Positions 18,970 to 52,400 of a DNA stretch of 64,000 bases are shown one piece after another (position 1 is the stretch's first letter; the number at the start of each line of letters is the position of its first letter). The position numbers and the translations under genes were made by a program. The notes under the pieces were generated by a model. It was not told the origin of the DNA, searched no databases, and saw only the letters and a list, made by a program, of their open reading frames with translations. The stretch is from a bacterium (GTDB lineage Bacteria; UBA8248), in the NCBI GenBank assembly GCA_965219955.1, contig OZ244799.1, positions 1,664,001 through 1,728,000 of the forward strand, in the 5' to 3' direction.

Positions 18970-19040
18970 GGGGACGGTGGAAAGATACGCTTGGCCGAGC
19001 AGTCCTACAGTTATTTAGAGTTGTCAACTTTTTTGAAGAC

Positions 19041-20153
19041 TTACCCCGCAACCCTATCCGGGAGGCGATAGCTCGTACTCCGCCCACCACCGGGATTCCG
19101 GATAAAAATCCCTCGGGCCTGTAAATCCTGAATATCCCGAAGCGCCGTATCCGTGGAGCACTTCGCCAGCTTGGCGTATTTCGAAGTATGCATATGTCCC
19201 TCGAAGTCATCCTCGAGCATACGATTCAGGACCAGACGCTGGCGTTCGTTGACGGGCTGCCGGTTCATTTCCCCCAAAAGCTGCGCCTTGAACAGAACTT
19301 TATGCAGCGTATCTTCGGCATTGCCGAATGCGCGGTTAAGGCAACCGAGGAACCATTCGAGCCAGTCCGTTATATCTGGTGTGCCGCGTTGTTGTTTTTC
19401 CAGTTGAGCGTAATAATCCTTGCGCCCGGATTCCATTTGTGTCGACAGGCTGTAGAAACGATCCGCCATGCCGTCAGAACGCGCCAAAGCCATATCGGCT
19501 ATGGCCCTGGCGATGCGGCCGTTGCCGTCTTCGAATGGATGGAGCGTGACAAACCACAGATGGGCAACCCCGGCTTTCAAAACGGGATCGACGCTGCTTT
19601 CAACCTCGAACCATTCCAGAAACGCCCCCATCTCTTGCTCAAGACGATCCGCATCCGGCGCCTCGAAATGAACCTTTTCACGTCCGAGAGAGCCTGAAAC
19701 AACCTGCATGGGCCCGGCTTCGGGGGTGCGCCAACCTCCGACCGTAATGCGGCGCATCCCGCTCCGGCCGGTTGGAAACAACGCAGCGTGCCAATCGAAC
19801 AGGCGCTCTCTCGTCAGGGGTCTGGAAAATTGCCGTGTTGCATCCAGCATCACCTCGACGATGCCCTCGACATCGCGGCTTGCCGGCGCAAGCCCGGCAA
19901 CATCGATGCCCAGGCGCCGGGCGATGGATGATCGCACCTCCCGGGGATTCAGGTTTTCTCCCTCGATGGCCGATGACTTGACCACATCGTTCGTCAGCGT
20001 AACGAGGCTCGCCTCACGCTTGAGTTCAAAGCCCAATCCTTCCATCCTGCCGAGCAGACGGCCCTGCCGATGCCGGACCCCGGCAAGTATCGAGGCGAGT
20101 CTCCCGGCGTCCCAGGTGAAGTCCGGCCAGTTATGATGTTTATATATCCACAT
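19041..20153 (-). CDS. Fic family protein (DUF4172-type N-terminus, C-terminal HTH)
   Basis: Canonical HPFEDGNGRIARA Fic motif, SSAIEGE inhibitory motif, WPDFTWD N-terminus and TALRDIQDL helix. Confidence 0.93.
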   Translation of the reverse strand: MWIYKHHNWPDFTWDAGRLASILAGVRHRQGRLLGRMEGLGFELKREASLVTLTNDVVKSSAIEGENLNPREVRSSIARRLGIDVAGLAPASRDVEGIVEVMLDATRQFSRPLTRERLFDWHAALFPTGRSGMRRITVGGWRTPEAGPMQVVSGSLGREKVHFEAPDADRLEQEMGAFLEWFEVESSVDPVLKAGVAHLWFVTLHPFEDGNGRIARAIADMALARSDGMADRFYSLSTQMESGRKDYYAQLEKQQRGTPDITDWLEWFLGCLNRAFGNAEDTLHKVLFKAQLLGEMNRQPVNERQRLVLNRMLEDDFEGHMHTSKYAKLAKCSTDTALRDIQDLQARGIFIRNPGGGRSTSYRLPDRVAG

Positions 20154-20156
20154 ATC

Positions 20157-20256
20157 AATCACCGCATTATTTGCAGTGATTATGCAGTTTATTCACTGCA
20201 AAAGCAAGAATAATCGACGCATAAAATGCGGTGAATAATGCTCCTATTCACCGCAA
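20157..20256. promoter_or_regulatory. Cluster of ATTCACYGCA-like half-sites (putative operators of the Fic gene)
   Basis: ATCACCGCA-TTATT-TGCAGTGAT, ATTCACTGCA, TGCGGTGAAT and ATTCACCGCA all lie within 100 bp upstream of the start. Confidence 0.5.
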
Positions 20257-20565
20257 GACGTCCGTCCCTGGATAAATTCGGGCCGTTTATACCAGCCCGG
20301 AACACGCTGACAGGTTGATATTATCGGGAAATATCCGGGCGGGAGGACACGCAGGGCAGATATATATGTCTGACGATGTGTCTGCCCCGCTCCCGTGATT
20401 GCCCCTTGCGGAACGGGAAATCCCACATTGGGCCGTTCACTAAAACAACCCGCTACGAAGGCGGTGCGGTTTGTTCGTCATTCCGGTATTCCCTCCCTCC
20501 TCGGGGCTGTTGAAAACGCCACATTTCAGGGGGTAGAGGAGAAGCCCCTCTCGGATAGAAAGGCA

Positions 20566-20661
20566 CCCCCCCCTACCCCCCCTTGTCAGGGGGCAAGAAA
20601 AGGCAAAGCCCCCTCAGCCCGACGGGGGCACATCGCCTTTTTATACCCCCCTGACAAGGGG
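20566..20661. repeat. Palindromic REP-like doublet (CCCCCTTGTCAGGGGG ... CCCCCTGACAAGGGG)
   Basis: Related copies at ~57225-57332, 57141-57165 and 28932-28956. Confidence 0.75.
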
Positions 20662-20910
20662 TTGTTGAAAAAATCCCGTGGAGCGATTTTGGTTGAGCGC
20701 AAGTTTTTGAATTTCACTCCCCCCTTGAGGGGGAGTCGAAGAGCTGAGGGCGTAAGCCCGAAAGCGATTCGGTGGGGGGTATAATTCGGAATGGCAATAA
20801 AACGCATTTTACCCCCCACCGAGTCAGCCTTCGCACAAACCGCTCGGCTTCCTCGACTCCCCCTCAAGGGGGGAGTGATTCCTCTCTCCTCGGACTTTTT
20901 CAACAGCCCC
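20658..20910. mobile_element. MITE-like element with GGGGTTGTTGAAAAA / TTTTTCAACAGCCCC terminal inverted repeats
   Basis: Terminal inverted repeats visible at both ends; internal inverted pair TCACTCCCCCCTTGAGGGGGAGTCG / CGACTCCCCCTCAAGGGGGGAGTGA; no transposase. Confidence 0.65.
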
Positions 20911-21138
20911 CTCAAGGAGGGGTGATTGGTTGGCACTCTGCAAGGGAAGGGAGTGGCGTCTCCTCCCCGGTCGGCCTCGTACACCGAATCACGAAATCAG
21001 GGCTGTTCTGCGGCCCCAATAATGTTCGCATTCCACAAATCTTCCGTTAGTCAGAATATAATGGTGCAGGAATAGCATTTGCTCCGACTTGTTTGGTTTC
21101 AGGTAGTTTCTGCGCCCCAAATTTCCGCGTCTTTCAAT

Positions 21139-22461
21139 CTACCAAAACCGCCCTGCGGGTCGCTCGAGCCCGTAGTGTTCCCGCAGCGTCTTGCCTTTAT
21201 ATTCCGTCCGGAACAGCCCGCGTCGCTGAAGAATCGGGATCACCTCTTCAACAAAAGCATCCAGCATCGTGGGGAAAAGCGGCGGCATCACATTGAAACC
21301 ATCGGCGGCGCCGTCGCGGAACCAGTCCTCAATCAAATCGGCGACCTGTTCGGGCGTGCCGGCGAAAGTAAAGTGGCCGCGAGCACCGGCAAAACGGGCC
21401 AGAAGCTGGCGCAAAGTAAGGCCTTCGTTGCGTACGAGATTGACGACCAGCTCGGACCGGCTGCGCATGGTTTCGACACCGGAGGGTGGAGGGAAATCGT
21501 CCGGCGTCAGCGGCCGGTCCAGCGGCAGATGCGAGAAATCATGTCCGTCGAACCGTGAAGAGAGCGTGCGGCGACCGCTCTCCGGGTCCGTACTCTCGTT
21601 GAGTTCCTGTTCCATCCGTTTTGCTTCGGTCTCGGTCGGCGCAATCATCGGGCTGAGTCCAGGCAGAATCAGGATTTGGTTTGCATCACGGCCCGCCGCA
21701 ACCGCTCGCTTCTTGATATCCGTGTAAAACTTCTGCGCCGTCGCCTTTTCGAGGTGGGCCGTAAATACCGCCTCCGCGTGACGCGAAGCAAAATCACGTC
21801 CGGCATCCGACGATCCCGCCTGCACCAGCACCGGTCGCCCCTGCGGACTGCGCGGCAGGGTCAGCGGCCCCGCGACGCTGTAATACTCGCCCTTGAAGTC
21901 GATTGGACGAATTCGCTCACTTTTGGCGTAGACGCCGCCGCTGCGATCATCGACCACGGCGTCATCGGCCCAGCTGTCCCACAAATCTTTGACGACCCGG
22001 ACGAATTCCTCGGCCATCAGGTAGCGGTCCGCATGCTTGTCCTGCCCCGCATCACCGTAATTGCGCGCGACCTTCGCCATCCAGGTGGTGACGATATTCC
22101 AGCCGGCGCGGCCATTGCTGATGTGGTCAATCGAGCTGAACTGCCGCGCAAGGTTGAAGGCCTCGGTATATGTGCTCGACCCCGTCGCGATCAGCCCGAT
22201 CCGCTCGGTTGCGACGGCGAGCGCCGCCAGTAAAGTGATTGGTTCCAGCCAGAGCCGCCCGGCGCGCGGAGCATCCGGCGTCAACATCAGCGAATCGGCG
22301 AAAAAGATCGAATCAAAATGCGCCGCCTCCGCGCGCCTAGCCAAATCCACATAGTAGTTTATATCGGTAAGCGAGGCTGTCGAAGAATCGGGATGGTTCC
22401 AGGCCGCTTCGTGGTGGCCCCGGGACTGGATGAACAAATTGAGGTGAAGTTGCCTGGTCAT
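21139..22461 (-). CDS. LLM-class flavin-dependent monooxygenase (NtaA/SnaA/DszA family)
   Basis: FFADSL, LEP..LLAALA, SNGRAGWNIVT, SPQGRPVLVQAGSS and DGFNVMP. Confidence 0.93.
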   Translation of the reverse strand: MTRQLHLNLFIQSRGHHEAAWNHPDSSTASLTDINYYVDLARRAEAAHFDSIFFADSLMLTPDAPRAGRLWLEPITLLAALAVATERIGLIATGSSTYTEAFNLARQFSSIDHISNGRAGWNIVTTWMAKVARNYGDAGQDKHADRYLMAEEFVRVVKDLWDSWADDAVVDDRSGGVYAKSERIRPIDFKGEYYSVAGPLTLPRSPQGRPVLVQAGSSDAGRDFASRHAEAVFTAHLEKATAQKFYTDIKKRAVAAGRDANQILILPGLSPMIAPTETEAKRMEQELNESTDPESGRRTLSSRFDGHDFSHLPLDRPLTPDDFPPPSGVETMRSRSELVVNLVRNEGLTLRQLLARFAGARGHFTFAGTPEQVADLIEDWFRDGAADGFNVMPPLFPTMLDAFVEEVIPILQRRGLFRTEYKGKTLREHYGLERPAGRFW

Positions 22462-22727
22462 TGAAGGTAACGGCTCTCATCAGGGGAAGGCGGGATTGTT
22501 CAACATCATACTGAATTTACGAACAGGAGCACAAACTCAGGAGTTACGCTCAGAGCTGATGTATGGGCTGAATTGAAGATGGCGGCGCAGGGCCAAGGGC
22601 ACCGCATGCACGGCTTCCGTCAACTATGTGCTCGCTGATGTGAATTTTATCGACGGGGTGGACAAAAGAAAAACAGAAAAGAAAACTGCTTTATTCTCGA
22701 CGCCAATACAGCAGATTTGAGATTAGC

Positions 22728-25682
22728 TCAAATGGCATTTTGTCCCGCAGACTCTAGAAACGAAATTACTCTATTTACCTGTAGCCCCCGCCCATTTTTA
22801 TCTGCTTTTATTTGAGCCTGAAAACTAATACCAACTTTTAGTTTATTTCTGTCTGTAGAAGGGACAACGGAAAAATGAAAGAATGCGTCTCTTGAGCCGT
22901 CCGCAATTTGAACAAACCCGTACCCTCTGTCTTCAAATACGCGAATAATCCGGCAATCAGCAATCTCAACCCCTCCCGGTTCAGTTTCTATATCATGAAC
23001 TTGAGTAATATGAAGCCCCTTTGCATTGCGACCAACGTCACAAAGCAGGTCATCACCGTCGCTCACATAGTCTATACCGCTTTCATGAAGTTGTTGGGCA
23101 TGCATAAAAACTTGTCCGTCAACACCTTCTAAATCAACAAAGCCATACCCTTTTTCGGCATCGAACCAATCGACTGTGGCAATAATACCTTCATAAACTA
23201 ACCCTTCTTGGTATTCGCTAATGCTCGATTCACCGACTTCTTCGTCCGAAAAAGATATCGCTTGAATAAAATGCTCTAATCGAGTTTTGAGATTTAATTG
23301 GCATTTGTATTGTTCAAGTTGATGAGGAATAGACATATAATTTTTATCTTCATCAAAAAGATATAAAACAAACATCTCCCTAATAGAATTCATTTTTTCA
23401 TCAAATGAAGCATTGGAAAAATAAATATCTCTAATCTGGTGGGCTATATCTTCATTTACGATTGCTGTTGTAAGCGCCATTTGTTCAAGAAAGATATTGT
23501 TATTCAAAGCTAAACGCAGGTGAGCTCTACCACTAAAAGAAATTGCCAACCTTTGTCCCGGGGAAAGATCCTGAACAGAGGCGTCATACGGCTCAATTAG
23601 CCCCGCCTCAAGTAATGAGATAAGCGCTCTGTCAACGGAAGATTCTGTACATCCAACCGCTTCAAAATAATTGAAAATAGACTGAACGCTACTATGCCTT
23701 TTGTCGATCGATTTCCCTGACTGATACAAAGAATCTAAGAGTGATAAAATTCTCAAAGCCATTAGTGGTGACTGTCGAATTTCTTGGTCTACTTGGAATA
23801 TCGGGAATACTTCATGGGCATCTCCTCGCTTATAAGCTTCATGATCACCTTTAATAAGCGCATTCATAAATTTTGAATAATTTGTTGCGACAGTCTCGTA
23901 AGTGATAAACGAACTAATTAAATCATCGATTTTAAAAATCGCTGACGTTATGACTCTTTTTGAAAGAAGCAATGTCCTACGAATGTTATAGTTCGTGAGC
24001 TCCCCAATTAAACTTGATGTGTAGTCTTGCTCAACAAACACGTTTTCGAGAACCTCTGCAAAACGATTCAGGTTGCCGATCGAAACTCTTATTCCACGAC
24101 TAGAAAAGTAGCTTCTACGTTCTTCCTCGCTGAATTTTTCAGAGAGACGCTGTTTGAGGAAACTAATGCGCCTTCTAAATACTTCCCTCGGTGCAGGAGT
24201 TGGCAGGAAGAACGATCTGGATTGATATATCCCGAATATGTCTGTCTTAGAAAATGACCAAGCAGATTTATCAGTTACTGGAAATATAAGAAGACAATGA
24301 TTCGCATGCCTCCGCAATGATTGCGCAAATTGAAAGATTATTCTTTTGTACTCCATAGAGAATTCATCAGTATTGTCAATCAGAATTATGGGAAGTTTTT
24401 TTCTATTTTGTACTGTATCCGCCAATATTCTTTTCAGATATCCTTCTCTGTCATTTTCAACATTGTCATCAAGATATTCGCTGAATTTCTCCTTGAACCT
24501 TTCTCTATCATTTTGGTAAAGATGAGCATCCACTCCCTTTGAGCGACGCTGGTACTCTGAATAATACAGTCCTCGAAGCTGATTCCATGAAGGTGCCCCG
24601 TCTTGATAAACCTGACTCTCTAGAGAGGAAATAATGTTTTCCGTTAGCCATTGGAGAACAGTTTCATCTCGACCAGAAGCGTCTAGGCAATTCACCCGCA
24701 CCACTAAACATTGACGGCGTATTGATTTCGAGAGGGTTTTTCGAAAGAATCGATCAAGGAAAGTAGATTTACCCGCACCTGTGGGGCCTACAATAAATAT
24801 TGTTTGCCCAGAATCCACCTCAACAGCCGCCTCGATTAGATTAGCAAGTTCTTTATCAACGTCTTTGTCTACAGGAGAAATATTACCTAAAACGTTTGCG
24901 GTGATTTTTTCGAGTGAAAAATCAGCTATTCGACTTTCGCGTGTTTCGACAAAACAATCGATTAACATATCGGCGTCTTCATCACCGGTCAGTCTCTCGA
25001 AAAATTTAGTAAATACCCGGTCGAGATCAAATGCGAGATTGTTTTTAGGAGAGATTTTTATTTTATTTTCTTCAAGAGGCGCAAAGAGAGGCTGGGTCAA
25101 TAACAATCGATTTTGATGTAATTTATCGAAAATTAGATTATACGCTTTTTTCTTTAATAGTTCTTTTGAAATGAGTTCGTAGAAGATTTGGAAGTCAGAA
25201 AGTACCGCGTTAAGACTGGGGAAAACTATAGCTTCTTTGTTTTTGAAATTTTCTCCGGCGACAAAAGGTTTAAATATGACCCAAGTCAAGCCATCAGTAA
25301 GAACTGCTATAGAAAGACCATTAGGTGTGGCATAACTAGCTGCTTGTTCAATCCCGGGGAGCGCATTTTTTAGCCCTGGACCGGAAATCTTCAAATGCCG
25401 GAGACGATTATTTTCGGTAGTCTCAATCTCAATGCTTCCAGTACGCTTTGCTTCAATAAGCAATGTGGGTTCGCTATCAATAGATAGAAGATAATCTGAA
25501 TATCCGTTCTCGTTCTTTATCTCAGCTCCGATATCCGAAAAAGACCAATTGAGACCCTCAGTTACTATCCTCGTGATTAATTGTATTTTGGAATCTTCTT
25601 CGGTCTTTATATTTGAGATATTCTTTAGGGATTCATCAACAATTTTTTTTGTTTTTTCAAAAGCACCATCTAAGGCAATCAT
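22728..25682 (-). CDS. 984-aa protein: HsdR_N-like PD-(D/E)xK nuclease + P-loop NTPase + two C-terminal cold-shock domains; putative defence protein
   Basis: EEDSK...SDYLL...LIEAKR...QAASYA...VLTDG.W; Walker A GPTGAGKST; Walker B IILIDNTD; WFDAEKGYGFV..VFMH and RGYGFV..AFFH; markedly AT-rich DNA. Confidence 0.8.
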   Translation of the reverse strand: MIALDGAFEKTKKIVDESLKNISNIKTEEDSKIQLITRIVTEGLNWSFSDIGAEIKNENGYSDYLLSIDSEPTLLIEAKRTGSIEIETTENNRLRHLKISGPGLKNALPGIEQAASYATPNGLSIAVLTDGLTWVIFKPFVAGENFKNKEAIVFPSLNAVLSDFQIFYELISKELLKKKAYNLIFDKLHQNRLLLTQPLFAPLEENKIKISPKNNLAFDLDRVFTKFFERLTGDEDADMLIDCFVETRESRIADFSLEKITANVLGNISPVDKDVDKELANLIEAAVEVDSGQTIFIVGPTGAGKSTFLDRFFRKTLSKSIRRQCLVVRVNCLDASGRDETVLQWLTENIISSLESQVYQDGAPSWNQLRGLYYSEYQRRSKGVDAHLYQNDRERFKEKFSEYLDDNVENDREGYLKRILADTVQNRKKLPIILIDNTDEFSMEYKRIIFQFAQSLRRHANHCLLIFPVTDKSAWSFSKTDIFGIYQSRSFFLPTPAPREVFRRRISFLKQRLSEKFSEEERRSYFSSRGIRVSIGNLNRFAEVLENVFVEQDYTSSLIGELTNYNIRRTLLLSKRVITSAIFKIDDLISSFITYETVATNYSKFMNALIKGDHEAYKRGDAHEVFPIFQVDQEIRQSPLMALRILSLLDSLYQSGKSIDKRHSSVQSIFNYFEAVGCTESSVDRALISLLEAGLIEPYDASVQDLSPGQRLAISFSGRAHLRLALNNNIFLEQMALTTAIVNEDIAHQIRDIYFSNASFDEKMNSIREMFVLYLFDEDKNYMSIPHQLEQYKCQLNLKTRLEHFIQAISFSDEEVGESSISEYQEGLVYEGIIATVDWFDAEKGYGFVDLEGVDGQVFMHAQQLHESGIDYVSDGDDLLCDVGRNAKGLHITQVHDIETEPGGVEIADCRIIRVFEDRGYGFVQIADGSRDAFFHFSVVPSTDRNKLKVGISFQAQIKADKNGRGLQVNRVISFLESAGQNAI

Positions 25683-26156
25683 TTTATTGTTCTTTCATTA
25701 TCGTTTGATAGTCCATCGCCAGCCCGGAATAATCACGGCAATGCAAATACCCAGTTTGTTAACATGGAGTATTTCGTTGTAGTTGTTTGGGCATTTGTTG
25801 TTTGTATGTATAACTTCATGAACAACGAAAATTGACACACTCCCATCACTAAAAATACCAGTTTCCCCTTAGCTCTTCCAGCCGCTAAAAACAAGAAAGT
25901 GGCGCCAGCCACGACATTTAGGCAAGAGGACAAACAGTCAACATTTGGCGTTGGCACATCAATAACATCGAAGCTGGAAAACTTAAAAGTATTTGTGGAA
26001 CAAAATATATATTCCAAAAGAGACAATTACATAGGCGCGTTCCCGACATACGCCGACGTAATCTTACGAAAAGTGCGTTTCGGCGTTTTACGCTTTCGAG
26101 AACAAGCGCCTACCCGACCCGTCGCCCCCGGCATTCAGGGGCCACCGGTTCAAGCG

Positions 26157-26417
26157 TCACAAATACTTCCTGAACCAGTCGACCGCCTCGACCATGCCGA
26201 TTTCGTGGTGTTCGGGGCTGCAGAAATAATAGGACTCGTAGTGCTGCGCGCCGGGGAGCTTGACGATCTTCTTGGGCTCCCCGCAGGCCTCGTAGCATCT
26301 GATCTGCTGGTCCACGGGTACCAGGAAATCGTTTTCCGAGTAGATGAACATGACTGGACGCGGCGCGATCCTGTCCGCCACCCACTCGGGCTTGTAGCGC
26401 CAGCAGGCTTCCGCGCT
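26157..26417 (-). pseudogene. Duplicated 3' fragment of the adjacent alpha/beta hydrolase gene
   Basis: ~260-bp near-identical direct copy of 26763-27023, encoding ...SAEACWRYKPEWVADRIAPR...WFRKYL*; no 5' part. Confidence 0.85.
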
Positions 26418-26762
26418 CTCAAGGCGGGAAGCCCTTTATTTTCAATAGAAATTCGGCGTTAACTAAACCGCCAAACAAGTGCCTCCAATATCCGCAGGCC
26501 GGCGTGGGCGGGTCGAGCGCGAAGGACGAGAACTTGCCTTTCATCGCCCCGTGTCGCATATTTTTCCTGGCGCCCGAGTCATTTCGCAATCGCCTCATGC
26601 CTTCGGGAGAGTGCGGGGGTTGTGGCCCGCCGGGCGCCGCTTTTTTATTCCCCCCCGATCTCCTCGAGTATCAACGCCCGCGCCTCGTCTGCAGGTATGT
26701 TGTCGAGCTTGCCGATGAGCCGCTCCGCTGCCTCGCCGTCCACCATTCCACGCGCTCAAATG

Positions 26763-27653
26763 CTACAAATACTTCCTGAACCACTCAATCGCCTCGACCA
26801 TGCCGATCTCGTGGTGTTCGGGGCTGCAGAAATAATAGGACTCGTAATGCTGCGCGCCGGGGAGCTTGACGATCTTCTTGGGCTCGCCGCAGGCCTCGTA
26901 GCATCTGATCTGCTGGTCCACGGGCACGAGGAAATCGTTTTCCGAGTAGATGAACATGACGGGGCGCGGGGCGATCCTGTCGGCCACCCACTCGGGCTTG
27001 TAGCGCCAGCAGGCTTCCGCGCTTTGGAGATCATAGTCCTTCACGTAGTCGCCGTGTTTCTGGTGGTTCTCCTGGATGACCTGGAGCGTATGGGGGTCGC
27101 AGAGCATGATCTCGGGCAGCGGCATCGTGGTCGGCTCGCCGGTGGTGACGCGCTTTCGGGCGGCTTCCATCACCGTCTTCTGGAACGAGTCCCACTCGTG
27201 CGGCCTACGCACCGAGCGCATCCAGCGCTCGCCCTCGTGCACCCCCACCGAGGAGACCACCACCTTCACGCGCTCATCGAAGGCCGCCACCCAGATGGCG
27301 TTCGCCCCGCCGAAGCTCGTGCCGAAAATACCGATGCGCTCGGGGTCCACGCCCTCGACGGTCTCCATGTAGGAGATGGCGTCGTAGGTATCCTGCGCCT
27401 GCTCCAGGGGCCGCTGGCGGCCGCGCTCGCCCTCGCTCTTGCCGAAGCCGCGGTGATCGGGCGCGAGGATGAAGTAGCCCTCCTCCCAGAGGCGTCTGGG
27501 AACGTCCATCCCGTAGACCTCCTTCATCCCGCTGTAGCCGTGCAGGCAGATGATGGCCGGTCTGGCGGGGTCGCCCGCTTGCCAGTCTTTCGGCGTATAG
27601 AGGTGGGAGGCGATTTTGAGGCCGTCGCTGTAGTAAACAATCTCTTCGTACAT
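26763..27653 (-). CDS. Alpha/beta fold hydrolase
   Basis: CLHGY, DHRGFGKSEG, GTSFGG nucleophile elbow, D..VP and GAQH; ATG after GGAGGGG. Confidence 0.9.
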   Translation of the reverse strand: MYEEIVYYSDGLKIASHLYTPKDWQAGDPARPAIICLHGYSGMKEVYGMDVPRRLWEEGYFILAPDHRGFGKSEGERGRQRPLEQAQDTYDAISYMETVEGVDPERIGIFGTSFGGANAIWVAAFDERVKVVVSSVGVHEGERWMRSVRRPHEWDSFQKTVMEAARKRVTTGEPTTMPLPEIMLCDPHTLQVIQENHQKHGDYVKDYDLQSAEACWRYKPEWVADRIAPRPVMFIYSENDFLVPVDQQIRCYEACGEPKKIVKLPGAQHYESYYFCSPEHHEIGMVEAIEWFRKYL

Positions 27654-27744
27654 GCAGGTTTCCCCCTCCAGGCTATGCCGCGGAAATCGGCTTAAGCACA
27701 AAATTACAATAACTTACGACATATGCGCCGCAGGATGCTTTCCG

Positions 27745-28584
27745 CTATCCGGCTTCGATGCCCCGCAACTCGCGGAGCAGGTCTCCGGCGTCGGGCGCGC
27801 GCATGAGCGCCTCGCCGACGAGGATGGCGTCCACTCCCTCGTCCACCAGGGGAGCCACTTCGCGCCAGCCGAATATCCCGCTCTCTGAAACGAGCACGAG
27901 TTCTTCTCTCTGCTCCGGCGTGAGCCGCCCGAACACGCGGGACGTATGCTGCGTATCCACCTCGAAGGTCTTCAAGTTCCGGTTGTTCACGCCGAGCACC
28001 CGGGTTCCCGCCGCGAGGGCGCGAGCGAGTTCTTCCTCGGCGTACACCTCCACGAGCGCGTCCATGCCGAGTTCTTCTGTGAGCGCGCGCAAATCCTCCA
28101 TCTGCGACGTCTCGAGGATGGCCGCGATGAGCAAAACGGCGTCCGCACCGCCCGCGCGTGCCTCCAGAATCTGGTATTCGGTGAAGATAAACTCTTTTCT
28201 GAGAACGGGGAGAGCCACTGCCTCGCGCACTTGTTCGAGATGCGCCATCTCGCCGAGAAAACGCCTCCGCTCGGTCAGCACCGAGACGGCGGCGGCGCCA
28301 CCCGCCTCATAGGCCCGGGCGATTTCGGCCGGCTGGAACGTCTCGGCGATCTGTCCCTGGGAGGGGGAGGCCTGCTTCACCTCGGCGATGACGCGCATCC
28401 GGCCGCCGCCTGCATCATCGCTAGATTCAGACCGCCTGAGCGCGCCTGCGAAACCCACAGTCGGCGGCGCATCCTTCGCCATCGACTTGAGGTCGGCTTC
28501 GGAGCGCCTTCTCTTGTCCGAGGCGATGTCCTCGCGAACGCCTTCCACGAGTTTATCGAGAACCGTATGCGTCGCAATCGTCAA
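27745..28584 (-). CDS. trpC: Indole-3-glycerol phosphate synthase
   Basis: IAEVKQASPSQG, SVLTE, VLRKEF, GVNNRNL and VSESGI. Confidence 0.97.
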   Translation of the reverse strand: MTIATHTVLDKLVEGVREDIASDKRRRSEADLKSMAKDAPPTVGFAGALRRSESSDDAGGGRMRVIAEVKQASPSQGQIAETFQPAEIARAYEAGGAAAVSVLTERRRFLGEMAHLEQVREAVALPVLRKEFIFTEYQILEARAGGADAVLLIAAILETSQMEDLRALTEELGMDALVEVYAEEELARALAAGTRVLGVNNRNLKTFEVDTQHTSRVFGRLTPEQREELVLVSESGIFGWREVAPLVDEGVDAILVGEALMRAPDAGDLLRELRGIEAG

Positions 28585-28632
28585 AATATCATGCTCCCAG
28601 CAGGAATCGACAACCTACAGGCCAGCGAAACC

Positions 28633-29020
28633 GGGCTTGTTGAAAAAGTCTCCACATCTCTCTCATCCTGAGTAGCGGCCCCTCGACTTCGCTCGGGACA
28701 AACTCTGCCCACACCTTCCTCATCCTGAGTAGCCGCCGAAGGCGGCGTATCGAAGGTCAATCGCGCCCAATGCGGAAGCGATTGCTCCGCACGCCGGGAG
28801 ACGCCTCTCATCCTTCGATACGGCGCTTGCGCGCCTACTCAGGATGAGGTTTTGTGGCCACCTGCGCGGCAGAAAGGGAGCACCGCCACGTAACCCCAAT
28901 ACCGCATGTCCCAGACGAGGCTTTTTCTACAGCCCTGACAAGGGGGGTAGGAGAGGGTGCTATTACAGTCGAGAGGGGCGTCCTCTCTACTCCCTAATTA
29001 GGGGCCTTTTCAACAATCCC
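28633..29020. mobile_element. MITE-like / composite repeat element between trpD and trpC
   Basis: Ends GGGCTTGTTGAAAAAG and CTTTTCAACAATCCC are inverted repeats; interior has TCATCCTGAGTAG...CTACTCAGGATGA palindromic repeats. Confidence 0.65.
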
Positions 29021-43740: not shown

Positions 43741-44191
43741 TCACTGCTCCCTTTAAGTTTCGTCATGCGAGAAAAAACGTCGCCTGAAATACGAGTAAAA
43801 CGGAATGCCGGTTCTCTTGTTATATAAAATCCGCCGAACGCCCCCGAAAGAATTTCCGGGACAATATGTTCATCACACCCTCAAACGAACTTTACCGACC
43901 TCTCCTTATCACGTCCCCCGCTCTGACGCCAGCCGGGGGGAGAAGAATTTTTCATCTCCCGGAGGCCCCGGAATCCGGCTGGAATATCGAGAGCGATTTT
44001 GATAGGGTGCGGGTGATTTTCAGGCGCTGAAAAGCCGGTCGGAAAAGGTGAAAAATTCGATAAAATCAGATAAATTCACGGTGTTTTTCGATAAATTTCG
44101 GAAGGATGACTGAGGCGCGCTGCACCAGGAACACTCTCATAAAACTCGTTCAGAGTCAAGCAGTTATCCTCCCCCCGAGGCGCGGTATCCC

Positions 44192-45025
44192 ATGGCGCAT
44201 CGCAGAAGACCAAAACTCGGCCAACACTTCCTGCACGAGAAGAGGTATCTCTCTCAAATCGTTGATTTGGCGGATATTACGCCGGATGAAGACGTGCTCG
44301 AAATCGGCGCCGGCGAAGGGGCCCTCACGCGGTGCCTCCTCGCCGCCGGCGCCATCGTCCACGGCATCGAGATAGACGACGCACTCATCCCCGCGCTCAA
44401 AAAGATGGAGGATGAACACGCTCGATTTCACCTGATCCACGGCGACGCGTTAGAAATCGACTACACCGCTCTCCCCGAGAAGATGAAATTGGTGGCGAAT
44501 CTGCCCTATCAGGTCGCTTCGGCGATAATCTCGCAACTCACTGAAAAGATTGAGCGATTCCCTCTCATGGTATTGATGGTGCAGCGTGAAGTGGGCGAGA
44601 GGCTTTGTGCTGAACCGGGTGGCAAGGATTATGGCTCACTCACTCTTTGGGTAGGGTATCGATATCAGACGAAACTCTGCCAGGTGGTGCCTCCAGGCGC
44701 TTTTCGGCCACCACCGAAGGTCGACTCCGCGATTATGTGTCTAGAGGCGAGGAAGAAGCCTCAAGTGGAGGTGGGGGATGAGAATCTCTATTTCCGCATC
44801 ATCCAGGCGGGTTTCGCGCACCGCAGAAAGACTCTGTTTAATAATCTCAAATCATTGAATCTAAATGAATTAAAAAACATGCAAGAACCCTTCTCAAACC
44901 CGGAGACTTGGCGGAACCTTCTCGAAAGAACAGGCATCGACCCCAGTCGGCGAGCCGAGACCCTGGACGCTCAAGAATTCGCGACAATTGCCCGAGCCGT
45001 GGAATCACTTACAAGGAACAAGTAG
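44192..45025 (+). CDS. rsmA: 16S rRNA dimethyladenosine transferase KsgA
   Basis: LGQHFL, EIGAGEG, NLPYQ, FRPPPKVDS and RRKTL. Confidence 0.97.
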   Translation: MAHRRRPKLGQHFLHEKRYLSQIVDLADITPDEDVLEIGAGEGALTRCLLAAGAIVHGIEIDDALIPALKKMEDEHARFHLIHGDALEIDYTALPEKMKLVANLPYQVASAIISQLTEKIERFPLMVLMVQREVGERLCAEPGGKDYGSLTLWVGYRYQTKLCQVVPPGAFRPPPKVDSAIMCLEARKKPQVEVGDENLYFRIIQAGFAHRRKTLFNNLKSLNLNELKNMQEPFSNPETWRNLLERTGIDPSRRAETLDAQEFATIARAVESLTRNK

Positions 45026-45028
45026 GCT

Positions 45029-45919
45029 TTGGCTATCAGAATTTTGATTTACCGAATGGGAGCATTCGGGGACACACTACTATTGGCTTTATTATTCAAA
45101 CAGTTAGGTAATCACTACGGAGATGCTCATATCACTCTGGCTGCAAACCCCAATTATGCAGCCCCGCTACTTGACTCGGGGTTGATTCACGAAATTCTTG
45201 ATGGGGGCTCATCCCCCTTCCACCTCCTGTATAATGCTCGACCACAAGAAAACGACGCTCTGTGTCGACTTATCAAACGCTATGATATGTGTATGTTCTA
45301 CACTTCGGACATGTCGGGAGAACTCGCCAAACGCTTGAGTTCAAACGGGTTGGAGCACTGCCGGGTACATCCACCATTTCCTCCCCCCTCGGAAGAAATT
45401 CATATCTGTGAGTGGATGATGCGTCCATGGCCATTTTGGGACGCTTCCAAAGGCGAGAAAATCACACTCATTCCTTCACAGAATCATTTAATTTTAGCTG
45501 ATAAAGTATTGAATGAATTTGGAATAGATGATGATTTCTTTCTCATCCATCCAGGCGGCGGGGGAAAGAACAAATGGATTCCCCTTCCGATTCTCGACAC
45601 AATGGTGCGAAAGCAAGCTGATGAAACAGGTCAGCTACCTGTCGTTATAGAAGGGCCAGCGGATTCAGTTGTTTGCGAGGAATTTCAAAGGCTGTTTGAT
45701 GATTCCATTCCGGTACTCAAGGATACTACACCCAAAGTTCTAAGCGCTCTTCTTTCAAAGTCTTCCGGATATTTTGGAGGGGATTCCGGCGTTTCCCACC
45801 TCGCATCTCTTTATGCGCCGCGTGCCACGATATTATATGGCCCAGATTCCAACATGCGGATTTGGCGTCCAATAGGCTCTGGCACACTCTGTATTCCATG
45901 GGAAACAATGAAGAGTTGA
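45029..45919 (+). CDS. Glycosyltransferase family 9 (heptosyltransferase-like)
   Basis: GAFGDTLL, IHPGGG..KW, GGDSGVSHLA and LYGP. Confidence 0.85.
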   Translation: MAIRILIYRMGAFGDTLLLALLFKQLGNHYGDAHITLAANPNYAAPLLDSGLIHEILDGGSSPFHLLYNARPQENDALCRLIKRYDMCMFYTSDMSGELAKRLSSNGLEHCRVHPPFPPPSEEIHICEWMMRPWPFWDASKGEKITLIPSQNHLILADKVLNEFGIDDDFFLIHPGGGGKNKWIPLPILDTMVRKQADETGQLPVVIEGPADSVVCEEFQRLFDDSIPVLKDTTPKVLSALLSKSSGYFGGDSGVSHLASLYAPRATILYGPDSNMRIWRPIGSGTLCIPWETMKS

Positions 45920-45980
45920 TCTTGCTTTTTTCTTGCAATTATTTTGGGCAGGAGAAGCGCAACTTCAACAATAACAAAAA

Positions 45981-46709
45981 TCAATCAATAAGGTTCGCCA
46001 GCCTGCCCCAGCGCGGTGAACCCGAATCCCCGTTCCATGACCAGTAAATCATGAAAGCGGAACCACGGATCTTATCGTCCCAACACGGCGCTGACCATAA
46101 CGAACAAGGAAAAGGCAACCCAAATGCATAGCCCGCAAAACGGATAGGTATATGATTCTCGCGCTCACCCATTTTCAAAAAACCCCAAAAACGGCTGTCT
46201 TGACTATTGTTTCGATTATCCCCCAGCATGAATAAGTGCCCAGGCGGAACTTTTTGCGGCCCCCATTTGCTCTCAAAACCTACAGCGGTACCATTGGGCT
46301 TAAAACGCACATATTTTTCATCCAGCGGCACACATTGTTCCGGTGTGTTCGGGGTGGCACAGTTGATAAACACTTTTTCCCCACGAACCATCACCTCCTC
46401 ACCCGATAACGCAATGACGCGCTTGATAAAATCCCGTCGTTCATCCTTAGGAAACCTGAACACGATAATGTCTCCGCGTTTAGGTTCGCGGAACCAAAAA
46501 ATAAATTTATTGACAAGTATATGGTCTCCGACGAGAAGAGTATTTTCCATCGAACCCGAGGGAATCTTGAATGCTTGCACTACAAAGGTGCGCACAAACA
46601 TAGCCAGTAACAAAGCTATGACTATTGCTTCAGCATATTCGCGAAAAGTTGATTTGGATTTACGTTTACGTTTCGCGCTTTTGCCTGTTGCTAAATCGGC
46701 ATCCGACAC
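45981..46709 (-). CDS. lepB: Signal peptidase I
   Basis: IPSGSMENTL, FIKRV and GDNRNNSQDSRFWG; follows lepA. Confidence 0.96.
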   Translation of the reverse strand: MSDADLATGKSAKRKRKSKSTFREYAEAIVIALLLAMFVRTFVVQAFKIPSGSMENTLLVGDHILVNKFIFWFREPKRGDIIVFRFPKDERRDFIKRVIALSGEEVMVRGEKVFINCATPNTPEQCVPLDEKYVRFKPNGTAVGFESKWGPQKVPPGHLFMLGDNRNNSQDSRFWGFLKMGERENHIPIRFAGYAFGLPFPCSLWSAPCWDDKIRGSAFMIYWSWNGDSGSPRWGRLANLID

Positions 46710-46711
46710 GT

Positions 46712-48514
46712 TTACTCCTTGCCCACATCCAAAACAGCCATAAATGCTTCTTGAGGCACTTCAACGGTACCGATATTCTTCATGCGTTTCTTCCCTTCTC
46801 GCTGCTTTTCCAGCAACTTGCGTTTTCGCGTGATATCACCACCATAGCACTTCGCGGTCACATCTTTTCTCAACGCACGAATCGTCTCCCGCGCAATCAC
46901 CCGGTTCCCAACCGCGGCTTGTATGATGACCTCAAACATTTGCCTCGGGATGATTTCTTTCATTTTTTGCACCAGCGCCCGGCCATGATAGTAAGCTTTC
47001 TCCTTGTGAATGATCGTCGAAAATGGATCTATCGGCTGTCCGTTAAGCAGGACATCAAGTTTGACCACATCCGCCGAGCGGTAATCCAGGTGCTCATAGT
47101 CAAAACTCGCGTATCCGCGAGAAACAGATTTTAACTTGTCGTAAAAATCGAAAAGAATTTCACTAAACGGTAGTTCGTAGACGATTTGCACAGTCGCCGT
47201 GTCGATATATTCCATAGAGCGCTGTATGCCCCGCTTCTCCTGTGCCAATTTGAGCACGGCGCCCACATATTCCGAGGGCACAAGAATAGTGCCCAAAATG
47301 AAAGGCTCCTCTATCGATTCAATCCTTGACAGTTCGGGCAACTTAGCTGGACTATCAATTTCCTCCACCGTAGCGTCACTGAGCAGAACGCGAAAGATCA
47401 CCGTCGGAGCTGTTATGATGAGTGTCAGATCGTATTCGCGCTCCAGCCTCTCGCGAATAATTTCCATGTGAAGAAGGCCCAAAAATCCACATCTGAAACC
47501 AAACCCCAAAGCTACCGACGTCTCGGGAGCATAGGTAAAGGCCGAATCGTTCAGTCTGAGTTTTTCGAGCGCCGTTCTTAAGTCTTCATACTCCGCGCTA
47601 TCCGCCGCATATAAACCGCTAAATACCATCGCTTTCGGCTCCTGAAAGCCTTGGATGGCCTCACGCGCAGGGTTTTTGGCAAGCGTAATGGTGTCACCTA
47701 CCCGTGTATCGCTCACCTCGCGTATCGAAGCAGACAAAATTCCCACTTCGCCCGGCCCAAGTTCTTTCATTTTTACTTCATGAGGCGTAAATGTACTTAA
47801 ACTCAGAACTTGATATTCCTTGCCAGTAGACATAAAACGTACGATATCGCCCTTGCGAATTGTCCCCTCGAACATCCGGAAGAGTGGAATGGCGCCTTGG
47901 TAGGAATCATACCAAGAATCTATCACGAGTCCTTGAACCGAACCTTGCATCTCCCCGCTTGGAGGCGGCACTCGCTCAACGATTGCTTCAAGTAGTGAAT
48001 CCACACCTTCGCCTTGTTTCGCGCTCACCAGAAGGCATTCATCCCGGTCAATTCCGATGACGTCTTCCATTTGCTTCACCACGCGTTCAGGATCCGCCGC
48101 CGGCAGATCGATTTTGTTGACCACCGGGATAATGGCTAAATCCTGCTCTAAAGCAAGGTATGCATTCGCCACCGTTTGGGCCTGGATACCCTGGGTGGCG
48201 TCGACCAGCAGCAAAGCACCCTCGCAGGCCTGAAGGCTCCTGGAAACTTCATAACTGAAATCCACATGACCGGGCGTATCTATGAGGTTAAAGACATATT
48301 CTTCGCCCCTATCCGATCTGTAGAAGATCCGCACCGTCGCCGCCTTGATCGTGATGCCTCGCTCCTGTTCCAAGTCCATGGAATCCAAAACCTGAGAAGA
48401 CATTTCACGCTTTGAAAGCGCCCCGGTCATTTCCAGAATGCGATCCGCCAGGGTGGATTTTCCGTGGTCTATATGAGCGATAATTGAAAAATTCCTGATT
48501 CGATCGATGTTCAC
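46712..48514 (-). CDS. lepA: Translation elongation factor 4
   Basis: [25 protein letters not shown] and [14 protein letters not shown]. Confidence 0.99.
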
Positions 48515-48795
48515 GGCCGGAAGAAATCTCTCTGGGAAGGCGAATGGCGCGAATGCCGAAATTGCGTGAGCCTGCTTGAAATTTTATTTCCGCTCTTCGA
48601 TTTCTGGTTACCTGCAAATACAGCAGTAGATAAACCTACTATTTTCACAGGTGATCAGGCGAACACGCTATATCAAACTTGTCCAACCTTGGTCAAATTG
48701 TTTGCCCCCGGATATACACGATGTTAGCATATGCAAAGTGCAGTGTTTCAGTCATTTATGCGTAATCCGCACCCACGATTAGGGCACACTTAACC

Positions 48796-50205
48796 ATGCG
48801 TTGCCGTAGCCTGCATGTTTTAACCCACCTCTCCATATTATGGTTGTTCTGCTTATTTTGCGCCTCGCCAGCATCGGCGGAGCCGCATCTATTTGGTAGT
48901 CGTCTCATTATCGATGCGGCCAAAAAGTTACAACCTTCAGTTGTACATATTCGTGTAAAACCAAAAGGAATGGAAGGCAATCCGTTACTCAACCTTTTCG
49001 GGAGAGGCCGTCAAAAAGACAACCCTCCAAAATTTGATCAGGGCGATGCGCCCTTTAGCGGGCACTATAACGTGGGATCTGGAATCATTGTCTCACAAGA
49101 AGGTCATATCTTAACGAATCACCACGTTATCAAGAATGCGCAAGAAATTATGGTCAAACTCCATGAAGGGGAGGAATTCTCAGCCCGTTTACTTGGTGTG
49201 GACGATAAAACAGATCTTGCCCTGCTGAAAATAAAACCGACTCAAAAACTCCAGGAAGCATCTCTCGGAGATTCCGATAAAATAGAAGTCGGGCAGTGGG
49301 TTATAGCAATAGGTAGTCCATTCGGTTTGGCGAATTCCCTATCCGTGGGAATAGTCAGCGCAAAGGGTAGGGACTTGAAAGAAGGTCCTTTTGATGAATA
49401 CCTCCAAACCGACGCATCAATTAACCCTGGCAACTCCGGTGGCCCACTTGCAAATACGGAAGGCGTCGTAATCGGCGTCAACACAGCGATATTTTCCAGC
49501 GGATCGCGCGCCTGGAGTCTGGGCATCGGATTCGCTATCCCGATCAACCAGGCCAAAGCCGTTATCGATTCCCTTCGCCACAAAGGCTATCCGGTGCGGG
49601 GTCGTCTGGGTGCGGCCATATCCGCAGTCCCCCGGCAAGAGGGAAAGAATCTGGGCTTAGCCCGCTTCGAGGGCGCCAAGCTCACGCAAGTTACTCGCGG
49701 CGGCCCTGCAGATCGTGCCGGCTTGCGTAGGGGAGATGTCGTGGTTGAATTCGACGGCAAATCTGTAAGCACATGGCAGAGCCTTCCCCGCATAGTAGCT
49801 CGCACGAAACCAAATTCCCTTGTGTTGGTAAAATATTATCGCGAAAAGCGCCTCGAAAGTGTCTATATCCGCATAGGAAGTCGGCCTGAAGCGCCCCATT
49901 CTCGAAAGGTGACCAACCATAAGTACATGGGAATGAAGGTAGAAATGCTTACCCCACATCTCGCCCAGCGTTTCGGATTGACATATGAGGAGAATAAATT
50001 GGTGGTCTCCTCGATTCTCAGAGGCGGCATTGCTGAGCTTAGCGGAATCAGGCCCGGCGATGAAATCGAGGAGGTTAACCATAAACCTGTAAAAACTATA
50101 GAGGAATTTCAGTTGCTTGTTGACAAATCACGCCTCGAGGGCTCCGTGCTCCTCCTTTTGAAGAGAAAAGAAACAAACCTATTCGCTGCTCTTCAAATCA
50201 AGTAA
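48796..50205 (+). CDS. DegP/DegQ (HtrA) serine endoprotease with two PDZ domains
   Basis: Signal peptide; TNHHV, DLAL and GNSGG catalytic triad; two PDZ domains. Confidence 0.95.
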   Translation: MRCRSLHVLTHLSILWLFCLFCASPASAEPHLFGSRLIIDAAKKLQPSVVHIRVKPKGMEGNPLLNLFGRGRQKDNPPKFDQGDAPFSGHYNVGSGIIVSQEGHILTNHHVIKNAQEIMVKLHEGEEFSARLLGVDDKTDLALLKIKPTQKLQEASLGDSDKIEVGQWVIAIGSPFGLANSLSVGIVSAKGRDLKEGPFDEYLQTDASINPGNSGGPLANTEGVVIGVNTAIFSSGSRAWSLGIGFAIPINQAKAVIDSLRHKGYPVRGRLGAAISAVPRQEGKNLGLARFEGAKLTQVTRGGPADRAGLRRGDVVVEFDGKSVSTWQSLPRIVARTKPNSLVLVKYYREKRLESVYIRIGSRPEAPHSRKVTNHKYMGMKVEMLTPHLAQRFGLTYEENKLVVSSILRGGIAELSGIRPGDEIEEVNHKPVKTIEEFQLLVDKSRLEGSVLLLLKRKETNLFAALQIK

Positions 50206-50299
50206 CACCTGCACTCAAACCAAAATGATGCAAAAGTCTTTATAGCGAATTTCCTTTGCTTTTAGGTCTAGCTCTCGAAATTCGATTGAAACGTGAATT

Positions 50300-51442: not shown

Positions 51443-51463
51443 AAACGTACCTAACTCTCAAAA

Positions 51464-52399: not shown

Positions 52400-52400
52400 G

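Follow-up and report, generated by a model that had tools for sequence, protein, structure and literature searches.

Antiviral proteins of the Avs3, Avs4 and Avs7 type are single polypeptides in which an N-terminal nuclease of the PD-(D/E)xK type is followed by a switch nucleoside triphosphatase (NTPase), equipped with a lid and a winged helix, and then by a region for recognition at the C-terminus. The mechanism of Avs3 and Avs4 is reportedly that described by Gao et al. 2022. In the parts of a 2026 survey of signal transduction ATPases with numerous domains (STAND) that are drawn on here (PMC12803255), 589 clades are distinguished, 198 of them defence-associated; sensors of at least 400 amino acids are sorted into 684 clusters, mostly TPR, WD40 and FGE; the known Avs triggers are proteins, not nucleic acid; and Avs7, upon binding of its ligand and ATP, tetramerises, enabling the fused nuclease. 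The subject of this study is a gene of similar layout on the minus strand of a 64,000-nucleotide stretch of bacterial DNA (lineage UBA8248; assembly GCA_965219955.1, contig OZ244799.1, positions 1,664,001 to 1,728,000), hereafter the window. Its 984-amino-acid product is predicted from the sequence to be a horizontally mobile, self-contained nuclease, gated by nucleoside triphosphate (NTP) and directed against nucleic acid that invades the cell, be it from a phage, a plasmid or another source of incoming DNA or RNA, a reading that is held tentatively, at a little less than an even chance. The gene itself is foreign in origin and organised as a single gene.

Like the Avs genes, the gene stands alone and is horizontally mobile, and the eukaryotic STAND proteins Apaf-1 and CED-4 are found among its fold matches. 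It differs from them in its short C-terminus, which ends in two cold-shock domains (CSDs) and not in a sensor of the TPR, WD40 or FGE kind with the size given in the survey, and in lacking a match to any Avs hidden Markov model (HMM) of PADLOC v2. CSDs next to a nuclease have a precedent in the CoCoNuT (McrBC-type) systems, which are predicted to act in defence and, according to the portions of PMC11090510 cited here, combine a PD-(D/E)xK nuclease and an NTPase with one CSD or two; these CSDs were interpreted by the authors as indicating single-stranded nucleic acid, chiefly RNA. CoCoNuT systems differ from the present gene in consisting of several genes, whose products include McrC, a GTPase of the McrB type and long coiled coils; none of these was found here, Pfam, NCBIfam and PADLOC giving no McrB or McrC match, and there is no partner gene. 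S1-like and cold-shock domains appear among the RNA-binding domains of NTP-dependent conflict systems in the part of Kaur et al. 2020 used here and are not mentioned in Kaur et al. 2021; the main text of PMC12803255, the part of that survey to which this statement applies, contains neither the word ‘cold’ nor the word ‘OB-fold’ (oligonucleotide/oligosaccharide-binding fold). No paper on a nuclease-NTPase-CSD architecture was found in literature searches, the CoCoNuT papers alone linking CSDs with a defence nuclease.

The coding sequence is a single, uninterrupted open reading frame (ORF) with an ATG start (ORF list and translation). An earlier note, made from the DNA alone, had proposed the order nuclease, NTPase, winged helix and two CSDs; motifs, Pfam matches and an AlphaFold2 (AF2) model show this order to be right, and every motif quoted there was located in the translation. 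The AF2 model of the whole protein (predicted local distance difference test (pLDDT) 82, predicted TM-score (pTM) 0.74) contains, from the N- to the C-terminus, the N-domain, a helical connector, the P-loop core, the lid, the winged helix, a helical domain, a low-confidence linker and two beta-barrels. An alignment of 50 homologues was its input and is the basis of the invariance counts and Pfam tallies given below. The features of the gene are as follows:

22728..25682, minus strand: whole gene (P0001), 984 amino acids, encoding nuclease, NTPase, winged helix and two cold-shock domains (translation; 371 homologues, full-length identity 48-87%).

25203..25682, minus strand: residues 1-160, N-terminal helix and PD-(D/E)xK core with E28, D63, E77-x-K79 and Q113-xxx-Y117 (motif conservation, Pfam HSDR_N, AF2).

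25446..25496, minus strand: putative catalytic D...ExK stretch, codons D63 to K79 (translation, alignments).

24867..25202, minus strand: helical connector, residues 161-272, with the invariant motif C243-FVETRESRIADFSLE-K259 (conserved columns in the 50-sequence alignment; AF2 helices).

24192..24815, minus strand: P-loop NTPase core, residues 290-497, with a helical insert of ~90 amino acids at 336-428 (Pfam AAA_22/AAA_16 in 50/50, AF2, Foldseek).

23847..24191, minus strand: helical lid, residues 498-612, with R505 invariant and R568 in 46/48 relatives (alignments, AF2).

23538..23762, minus strand: winged-helix-like domain, residues 641-715, three helices and a beta-hairpin, with RALISLLEAGLIE (AF2).

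23268..23537, minus strand: C-terminal helical domain of the core, residues 716-805, the final domain in CSD-less relatives (AF2, profile search).

23205..23267, minus strand: unconserved flexible linker, residues 806-826 (mean pairwise identity 0.12; pLDDT <50 at 809-822).

22986..23204, minus strand: CSD 1, residues 827-899, with RNP1 at K844-G-Y-G-F-V849 and RNP2 at V858-F-M-H861 (Pfam CSD, matches to Csp structures in the PDB, aromatic residues).

22755..22985, minus strand: CSD 2, residues 900-976, with RNP1 at R919-G-Y-G-F-V924 and RNP2 at A933-F-F-H936 (second stretch of Pfam CSD, conservation).

Conservation among the 50 homologues, expressed as mean pairwise identity, is highest in the strands of the NTPase (0.67-0.72); among the folded parts, it is lowest in the CSDs (0.43 and 0.39) and in the helical domain that precedes the linker (0.41). 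The motif in the connector (nt 24906-24956), located between nuclease and NTPase, is almost invariant in the two-CSD family; its C243 is retained in 47/48 of the CSD-less relatives introduced below.

The protein belongs to a large family. A word-indexed homologue search returned 371 matches from several phyla, many of which have ~980 amino acids and are 48-87% identical over their full length; named hosts are Methylomonas, Hyphococcus, Kiloniella, Thiorhodovibrio, Nitratireductor, Rhizobium, Alcanivorax, Methylophaga and Aquimarina. The names given at the source are ‘cold shock domain-containing protein’ or ‘AAA family ATPase’. Pfam AAA_22 and AAA_16 are each matched in 50 of the 50 aligned members, ATPase_2 in 44 and HSDR_N_2 in 11. 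A HMMER scan with the profile of the 50 homologues matched 9338 proteins (cluster representatives) at E<=1e-3; tightening the threshold to E<=1e-10 left 2093, and E<=1e-30 left 610. Many of the top matches have 800-870 amino acids and align to profile positions 1 to ~805 only, with E-values down to 1e-222. These CSD-less relatives (~800-870 amino acids) are homologous over residues 1 to ~805 and share E28, D63, E77, K79, Q113, Y117, D436 and R505; they differ in that they end after the helical domain and carry H or Q at position 440. They bear names such as ‘HsdR N-terminal domain-containing protein’, ‘AAA family ATPase’ and ‘P-loop NTPase fold protein’, are likewise found on plasmids, beside restriction-modification (R-M) genes and beside prophage remnants, give no PADLOC match and are equally uncharacterised.

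In PADLOC v2 (2023), the best match of the protein itself is confined to the P-loop (mad8, 7e-6), accompanied by a CSD-level match, and no Avs model is hit at E<=1. For 34 relatives (31 plus three plasmid-borne CSD-less proteins), weak partial P-loop, single-CSD and short N-terminal matches were obtained, none covering a whole model. The earlier statement that this is not a named system holds for PADLOC v2 and for the literature searches.

The N-terminal domain carries the motifs S62-D63-Y64, I76-E77-A78-K79, Q113-A-A-S-Y117 and T129-D130-G131, of which E28 (further upstream), D63, E77, K79, Q113 and Y117 are present in 50/50 homologues and in 48/48 CSD-less relatives. In the AF2 model, its order alpha-beta-beta-beta-alpha-beta fits the PD-(D/E)xK fold; D63 lies just before strand 64-68 and E77/K79 lie at the end of strand 71-78, i.e. 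at the second and third core strands. Pfam HSDR_N matches the protein with E 0.002 and 18.4 bits, under the gathering cut-off of 25.1; at E<=0.01, HSDR_N (PF04313/PF13588) is matched in 30/50 homologues (best 1.9e-6), and three CSD-less relatives exceed the cut-off (30.7, 26.9 and 25.3 bits). The HsdR_N-like PD-(D/E)xK module named in the earlier note is hence borne out by an intact and invariant motif set, with a score for this very protein that stays below the cut-off. A survey of the PD-(D/E)xK superfamily, in the part cited here, files HSDR_N/COG4748 with type I endonucleases of the EcoR124I type (PMC3424549). With type I HsdR, the protein shares D...ExK and QxxxY, and the Pfam family HSDR_N is matched in the 30/50 homologues mentioned; it differs from it by the lack of a superfamily 2 (SF2) motor, of HsdM and HsdS, and of hhalign similarity to EcoKI HsdR 1-260. 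A type I R-M system was rejected as an explanation: the protein has no ResIII or Helicase_C domain, and neither a methyltransferase nor HsdS is encoded among the 12 neighbouring ORFs. Weak DEAD matches were seen in 8/50 homologues (Pfam, best E 0.0016).

The same domain bears on a further explanation, an NTP-dependent restriction enzyme of type IV style that cuts DNA with a particular modification or structure and has no infection trigger. It would account for the HSDR_N-type domain and its grouping with type I endonucleases, for the missing cognate methyltransferase among the 12 neighbouring ORFs and for the names of some relatives, ‘type I restriction endonuclease’ or ‘predicted type IV restriction endonuclease’. 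However, a McrB-type GTPase, an SF2 motor and a known modified-base reader were not found (Pfam, NCBIfam), and CSDs read single strands, not modified duplex; the explanation is considered highly unlikely.

The central NTPase predicted in the earlier note is supported by its motifs and by Pfam AAA_22 (30.1 bits, over the cut-off of 27); AAA_16 (E 5.7e-7) is slightly under its cut-off. Walker A reads G299-P-T-G-A-G-K305-S (299-306) and Walker B, at 432-440, reads IILIDNTDE (I434-D436-N-T-D439-E440). In the AF2 model, the P-loop core has five strands (293-298, 325-331, 430-436, 464-469 and 489-492), the insert being located between strands 2 and 3. G299, G304, K305, D436, N437, D439 and, in the lid, R505 are invariant in the 50-homologue alignment; in the CSD-less relatives, D436 and R505 are found in 48/48, N437 in 45/48 and D439 in 47/48, and position 440 is H or Q, not E. 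The segment RALISLLEAGLIE (684-696), which had been called winged-helix-like, is located inside a helix-helix-helix-hairpin unit at 641-714, with helices 641-655, 666-674 and 680-692 and strands 696-698 and 711-714 (AF2).

A Foldseek search of the PDB placed archaeal ORC2/Cdc6 (1w5t, E 3.6e-7) at the top, followed by eukaryotic ORC/Cdc6 subunits, with 1fnn also among the matches; next came Apaf-1 (3shf, 5.6e-6), CED-4 (3lqq, 1.2e-5) and Dark (4.9e-5). The TM-scores are low (0.13-0.45), as expected because the query is multi-domain. A profile of the central region, compared with PDB sequences, retrieved nothing meaningful, only generic P-loops. The AAA+ initiators of the ORC/Cdc6 group are thus the best structural matches to the NTPase-lid-winged-helix module; the protein differs from them in its Walker B (D-N, not D-E), in the fused nuclease and CSDs, in the absence of a replication context and in its score against NCBIfam orc1/cdc6 (TIGR02928, E 2.7e-7, 29.8 bits), which is far below the cut-off of 181.3. 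The Walker B of STAND NTPases has the form hhhhD-x-x-D-E. In the present D-N-x-D-E, the residue directly following the aspartate is not glutamate, and by the NACHT/STAND motif it looks more STAND-like than ORC-like. The STAND models of Pfam nevertheless remain under their cut-offs (NACHT 14.3 vs 26.7, NB-ARC 12.4 vs 23.5, nSTAND5 19 vs 34 bits), and at E<=0.01 all their matches in the 50 homologues are weak (nSTAND5 35, NACHT 16, NB-ARC 3). In the model, the NTPase-lid-winged-helix build thus appears common to ORC/Cdc6 and STAND and would be assignable to neither alone. Of the STAND/Avs layout invoked in the earlier note, what stands is a resemblance at the level of the fold and not a demonstrated membership, because ORC/Cdc6 outranks the STAND structures and the Pfam STAND models score below their cut-offs.

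A rival explanation is that the protein acts as an Avs-type protein sensor, in which the helical region ~500-805 recognises a phage protein and the CSDs have a minor role, e.g. localisation on RNA or DNA. Such a role would be in keeping with the fold matches to Apaf-1, CED-4 and Dark, with the protein nature of all Avs triggers found so far (PMC12803255, in the parts cited) and with the retention of the helical region in CSD-less relatives and with the variability of residues 716-805, the most variable helical part (0.41 among the 50 homologues), but several features set the protein apart from such sensors: without the CSDs, only ~90 amino acids follow the winged helix, compared with the sensors of at least 400 amino acids clustered in those parts of the survey; TPR, WD40 and LRR repeats have no Pfam match in the protein or in the 50 homologues; there is no Avs HMM match; and the repeated gain of OB folds suggests that nucleic acid matters. 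A protein-sensing role of this kind is regarded as decidedly unlikely.

The two C-terminal CSDs with their RNP1 motifs (KGYGFV 844-849, RGYGFV 919-924) were confirmed by Pfam CSD (PF00313), which matches in two stretches (E 1.2e-16, 60.7 bits vs a cut-off of 27), and by two five-stranded barrels in the AF2 model (827-898 and 905-975). CSD is matched in 49/50 homologues, and a sequence search of the PDB found Csp proteins (best 4.7e-8). Conservation (n=50) is 48 for F848, 41 for F859 and 40 for H861 in CSD 1, and 50 for R919 and F923, 49 for Y921 and G922, and 46 for H936 in CSD 2. The aromatic residues of RNP1 and RNP2 are kept as in the CspA family, and OB_RNB, the OB domain of the RNase II/R type, is matched in 26/50 homologues, as in RNase II/R tandem CSDs. 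In contrast to the CspA family, however, these are domains of a 984-amino-acid enzyme, not proteins of 70 amino acids, and the Csp equivalogs score below cut-off. CSDs of Csp proteins bind single strands. A retron with a cold-shock effector (Se72 type) was rejected, as NF038236 scores 19 bits vs a cut-off of 82, Rfam has no match at 19000-29000 and no neighbouring gene encodes a reverse transcriptase.

Among the best 150 profile matches, 63 proteins have at least 780 amino acids (88 shorter ones, probably fragments, were left out); 13 of the 63 have two CSDs, two have one, and 48 have none. When a tree was built from the core alone, after excision of the CSDs (FastTree only, midpoint root), the proteins with two CSDs fell into one clade (support 96), which is nested among CSD-less proteins, and the pair with a single CSD fell into another (support 100); the CSDs were therefore gained at least twice. 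Because most full-length relatives lack them and because of this repeated gain, the CSDs are an add-on to a working core, not a sensor of the whole family. When shorter proteins were searched for the CSD pair, only 12 matches were obtained, apparently fragments of the same family. The protein Atlas entry of the homologue P0018 lists a sister cluster with HSDR_N and an S1 domain, an unconfirmed lead only. The proposal of the earlier note that the CSDs are the sensor is therefore only partly upheld: the pair is intact and its RNP aromatics are kept, but most relatives do without CSDs, and the domains hang on an unconserved linker of 21 residues, so that they would probably not transmit an allosteric signal in the manner of a rigid sensor. 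They are probably an accessory tether or an extra nucleic-acid input and not the primary sensor.

The CSD pair could also feed RNA to the PD-(D/E)xK domain, in which case the enzyme would be RNA-directed and would shut off translation or degrade transcripts, as predicted for CoCoNuT. The OB_RNB matches speak for this, whereas a domain specific to RNases was not found and the endonucleases known with an HSDR_N-type domain act on DNA (PMC3424549, in the part cited). An RNA-directed enzyme is therefore rated very doubtful.

The foreign origin of the gene is apparent from its composition. In the 200-nt G+C (GC) profile and in 1-kb bins, it occupies an island of its own:

~22600..~26050, strand not applicable: low-GC island with this gene alone inside.

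The 1-kb bins at 23-26 kb have a GC content of 0.376-0.409 and are the three lowest of the 64 in the window; at 23341-23400, 13 of 60 nt are G or C, a value that low being reached in just two of the 60-nt bins of the window. The gene has a GC content of 0.39, compared with 0.59 and 0.64 for its flanks, and at third codon positions (GC3) of 0.33, compared with 0.64-0.88 in six neighbours. The AT-rich island reported earlier is thereby verified as the lowest-GC part of the window. In 7/7 loci measured, the window included, the gene has a lower GC content than both flanks (Methylophaga 0.373 vs 0.47 and 0.50; an alphaproteobacterial metagenome-assembled genome (MAG) 0.438 vs 0.60 and 0.65). The closest named matches of the window's TrpE are Tectomicrobia/Nitrospinota MAGs (75-76%), whereas the named relatives of the gene belong to Pseudomonadota, Bacteroidota and a Pontiella MAG (82% over residues 1-323); this difference fits horizontal transfer.

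A total of ~17 contexts were inspected, and the picture of mobility and defence is drawn from these. A scan of genome contigs with a generic P-loop pattern contained, among the 30 loci listed, at least six true relatives; tblastn found 51 plasmid records, seven of them with at least 80% coverage. Two-CSD copies are found on a conjugative Phaeobacter plasmid and immediately 3' of the rep gene of an Acinetobacter plasmid; an island comprising an integrase, a DEAD-box helicase and the two-CSD gene is common to the A. ursingii chromosome (L004, intact) and an Acinetobacter plasmid. On that plasmid (L034 10001-14123), the two-CSD gene is located in IS-rich DNA, with tet(X3) and sul2 a few kb away, and is split by the insertion sequence (IS) ISAba1. 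A truncated two-CSD copy lies beside IS5 in Rhizobium. The split and the truncated copies are as expected for a costly accessory gene. Several copies have mobile or defence genes in their vicinity: a Rhodobacteraceae plasmid encodes a type I R-M system 3 kb from the two-CSD copy, the Paracoccus copy has an IS, an integrase fragment and ArdC close by, and a MAG copy is accompanied by an REase-ARP-like gene; one CSD-less relative is adjacent to a type II R-M system. In Klebsiella aerogenes NCTC10006 (L039 5941-8391), a CSD-less relative of 816 amino acids directly follows P2-like terminase/capsid-packaging gene fragments downstream of mug, a setting that resembles a prophage defence hotspot. No conserved neighbour gene and no conserved small up- or downstream ORF were found across seven loci (window, L001-L004, L031, L032). 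Low GC, mobile or variable contexts and R-M or SoFic neighbours are suggestive of an accessory, defence-like gene.

Some of these contexts would fit competition among plasmids and other mobile elements, in which the protein would attack DNA entering in single-stranded form (conjugation, transformation, single-stranded DNA (ssDNA) phage) or stabilise its own replicon, and would not be a general anti-phage factor. In 5/12 plasmid contexts (H3, H8, H9, H10, H17), rep or par genes are located within two genes of the gene or its CSD-less relative, the 51 plasmid records stand against zero phage records, and the single-strand binding established for Csp proteins would suit such a target. Since small plasmids have few genes, the closeness to rep or par may be due to chance, and chromosomal copies, including that in the window, have no plasmid genes nearby; the probability given to this explanation is small.

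A housekeeping function in nucleic-acid metabolism (repair, RNA quality control or cold adaptation) would be indicated by the CSDs, best known from housekeeping RNA chaperones, by partial NCBIfam matches to CspD/CspE and by the setting of the Methylophaga copy. It is at odds with the patchy distribution, the foreign composition at every locus measured, the carriage on plasmids and islands, the IS-disrupted copies and the Csp equivalog scores, all of which are far below their cut-offs, and is considered extremely improbable.

The immediate surroundings in the window are those of a stand-alone gene. On one side, it is neighboured by genes for an aminotransferase, prephenate dehydratase, an MR/MLE enzyme, a DUF4172-Fic protein and a luciferase-like monooxygenase, and on the other side by those for an alpha/beta hydrolase, trpC, trpD, trpG, trpE and truA. 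Among the 12 neighbouring ORFs (15.7 to 33.4 kb), Pfam detects no methyltransferase, specificity subunit, helicase or reverse transcriptase, in agreement with the earlier note, which had reported none of the first three nearby. Neither an integrase, a tRNA near the island nor att-like direct or inverted flanking repeats were found; the 97-amino-acid ORF at 25733-26026 has no Pfam family and no counterpart at the other loci; promoter and terminator scans at the gene gave no signal exceeding that of shuffled sequences; and Rfam has zero matches in window 19000-29000. The DUF4172-Fic protein (19041-20162, minus strand), 2.6 kb from the gene, is a full-length PADLOC SoFic match (E 1.1e-40); with a GC3 of 0.64, below that of the trp genes, its gene is possibly a second acquired defence-type gene. 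To the right of the island, the alpha/beta-hydrolase gene (26763-27701, minus strand) has its 3' end duplicated in a direct repeat of 276 nt (93% identity; 26142-26417 and 26748-27023), the two copies being 330 nt apart; the spare copy (ORF 26157-26381) adjoins the right edge of the island. The repeat may be the scar of an insertion or recombination event.

Further features of the window lie outside the island. GC-rich palindromic repeat clusters at 20450-20950 and 28600-29000 resemble intergenic elements similar to repetitive extragenic palindromic (REP) sequences or miniature inverted-repeat transposable elements (MITEs); in one example, the arms 20714-20742 and 20850-20878 are 97% complementary, and related copies occur near 28920-28995. 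At 44000-53000, the GC content is broadly lower (0.45-0.53), yet the genes are of housekeeping type (rRNA adenine dimethylase, LepA, HtrA-like protease, dGTPase-like HD protein, HhH-GPD glycosylase, ABC transporter). A DUF3800 protein (59857-60756, minus strand), possibly acquired, is encoded where the GC content dips briefly (0.47 at 60-61 kb).

The favoured reading of an NTP-gated nuclease against invading nucleic acid could, by analogy with nuclease-bearing Avs proteins, be realised in the following manner: The NTPase would serve as a slow nucleotide switch, silencing the nuclease as long as the protein is a resting monomer. Any ssDNA or RNA arising in infection or DNA entry would be caught by the two CSDs, and several protomers would collect on one strand. 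NTP-dependent assembly of the NTPases would then bring the nuclease domains together, switching cleavage on. Alternatively, the CSDs may deliver the nuclease to its substrate. In the older, CSD-less core, the trigger would be sensed elsewhere in the protein, most probably by the helical region 500-805, and the CSDs would add a nucleic-acid input or targeting to it. Cleavage may be directed at the invader or may kill the cell (abortive infection). The most far-reaching version, in which the protein would be the first bacterial NLR/STAND-like receptor reading nucleic acid and not protein, its tethered OB folds (two CSDs here, a single CSD or an S1 domain in sister lineages) catching an invader's ssDNA or RNA and so nucleating an NTP-dependent assembly that fires the fused nuclease, is unlikely.

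A number of observations count against this favoured reading. The nuclease is assigned by motifs and, for this protein, a sub-threshold Pfam match, and is to that extent a prediction; hhalign of the N-domain against EcoKI HsdR (1-260) and Mrr gave a probability of <1%, and a profile of residues 1-275 retrieved nothing meaningful from PDB sequences (best E 0.26). The switch model would hold by analogy, because ORC/Cdc6 outranks STAND in the fold search. As 48/63 relatives lack CSDs, single-strand capture is not the general trigger of the family. The protein and its 34 relatives match no PADLOC v2 model as a whole; tblastn of phage records detected none that carries the gene; the Methylophaga copy (L001) sits between housekeeping genes only; and what suggests a defence role is circumstantial (low GC, mobile contexts, few R-M or SoFic neighbours).

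The family forms part of a sizeable superfamily, whose members combine, by fusion, a restriction-type nuclease with an ORC/Cdc6-STAND-like switch and to whose core single-strand-binding OB folds were added more than once. Its frequent carriage on plasmids raises the question of action on DNA entering single-stranded. If defensive, the gene would be a one-gene addition to the defence catalogue and would provide a direct route to ask whether bacterial NLR-like switches are triggered or aimed by nucleic acid. A nucleic-acid-reading receptor, if true, would work on a principle resembling that of nucleic-acid sensors in eukaryotes, with an ORC/Cdc6-STAND switch as its basis.

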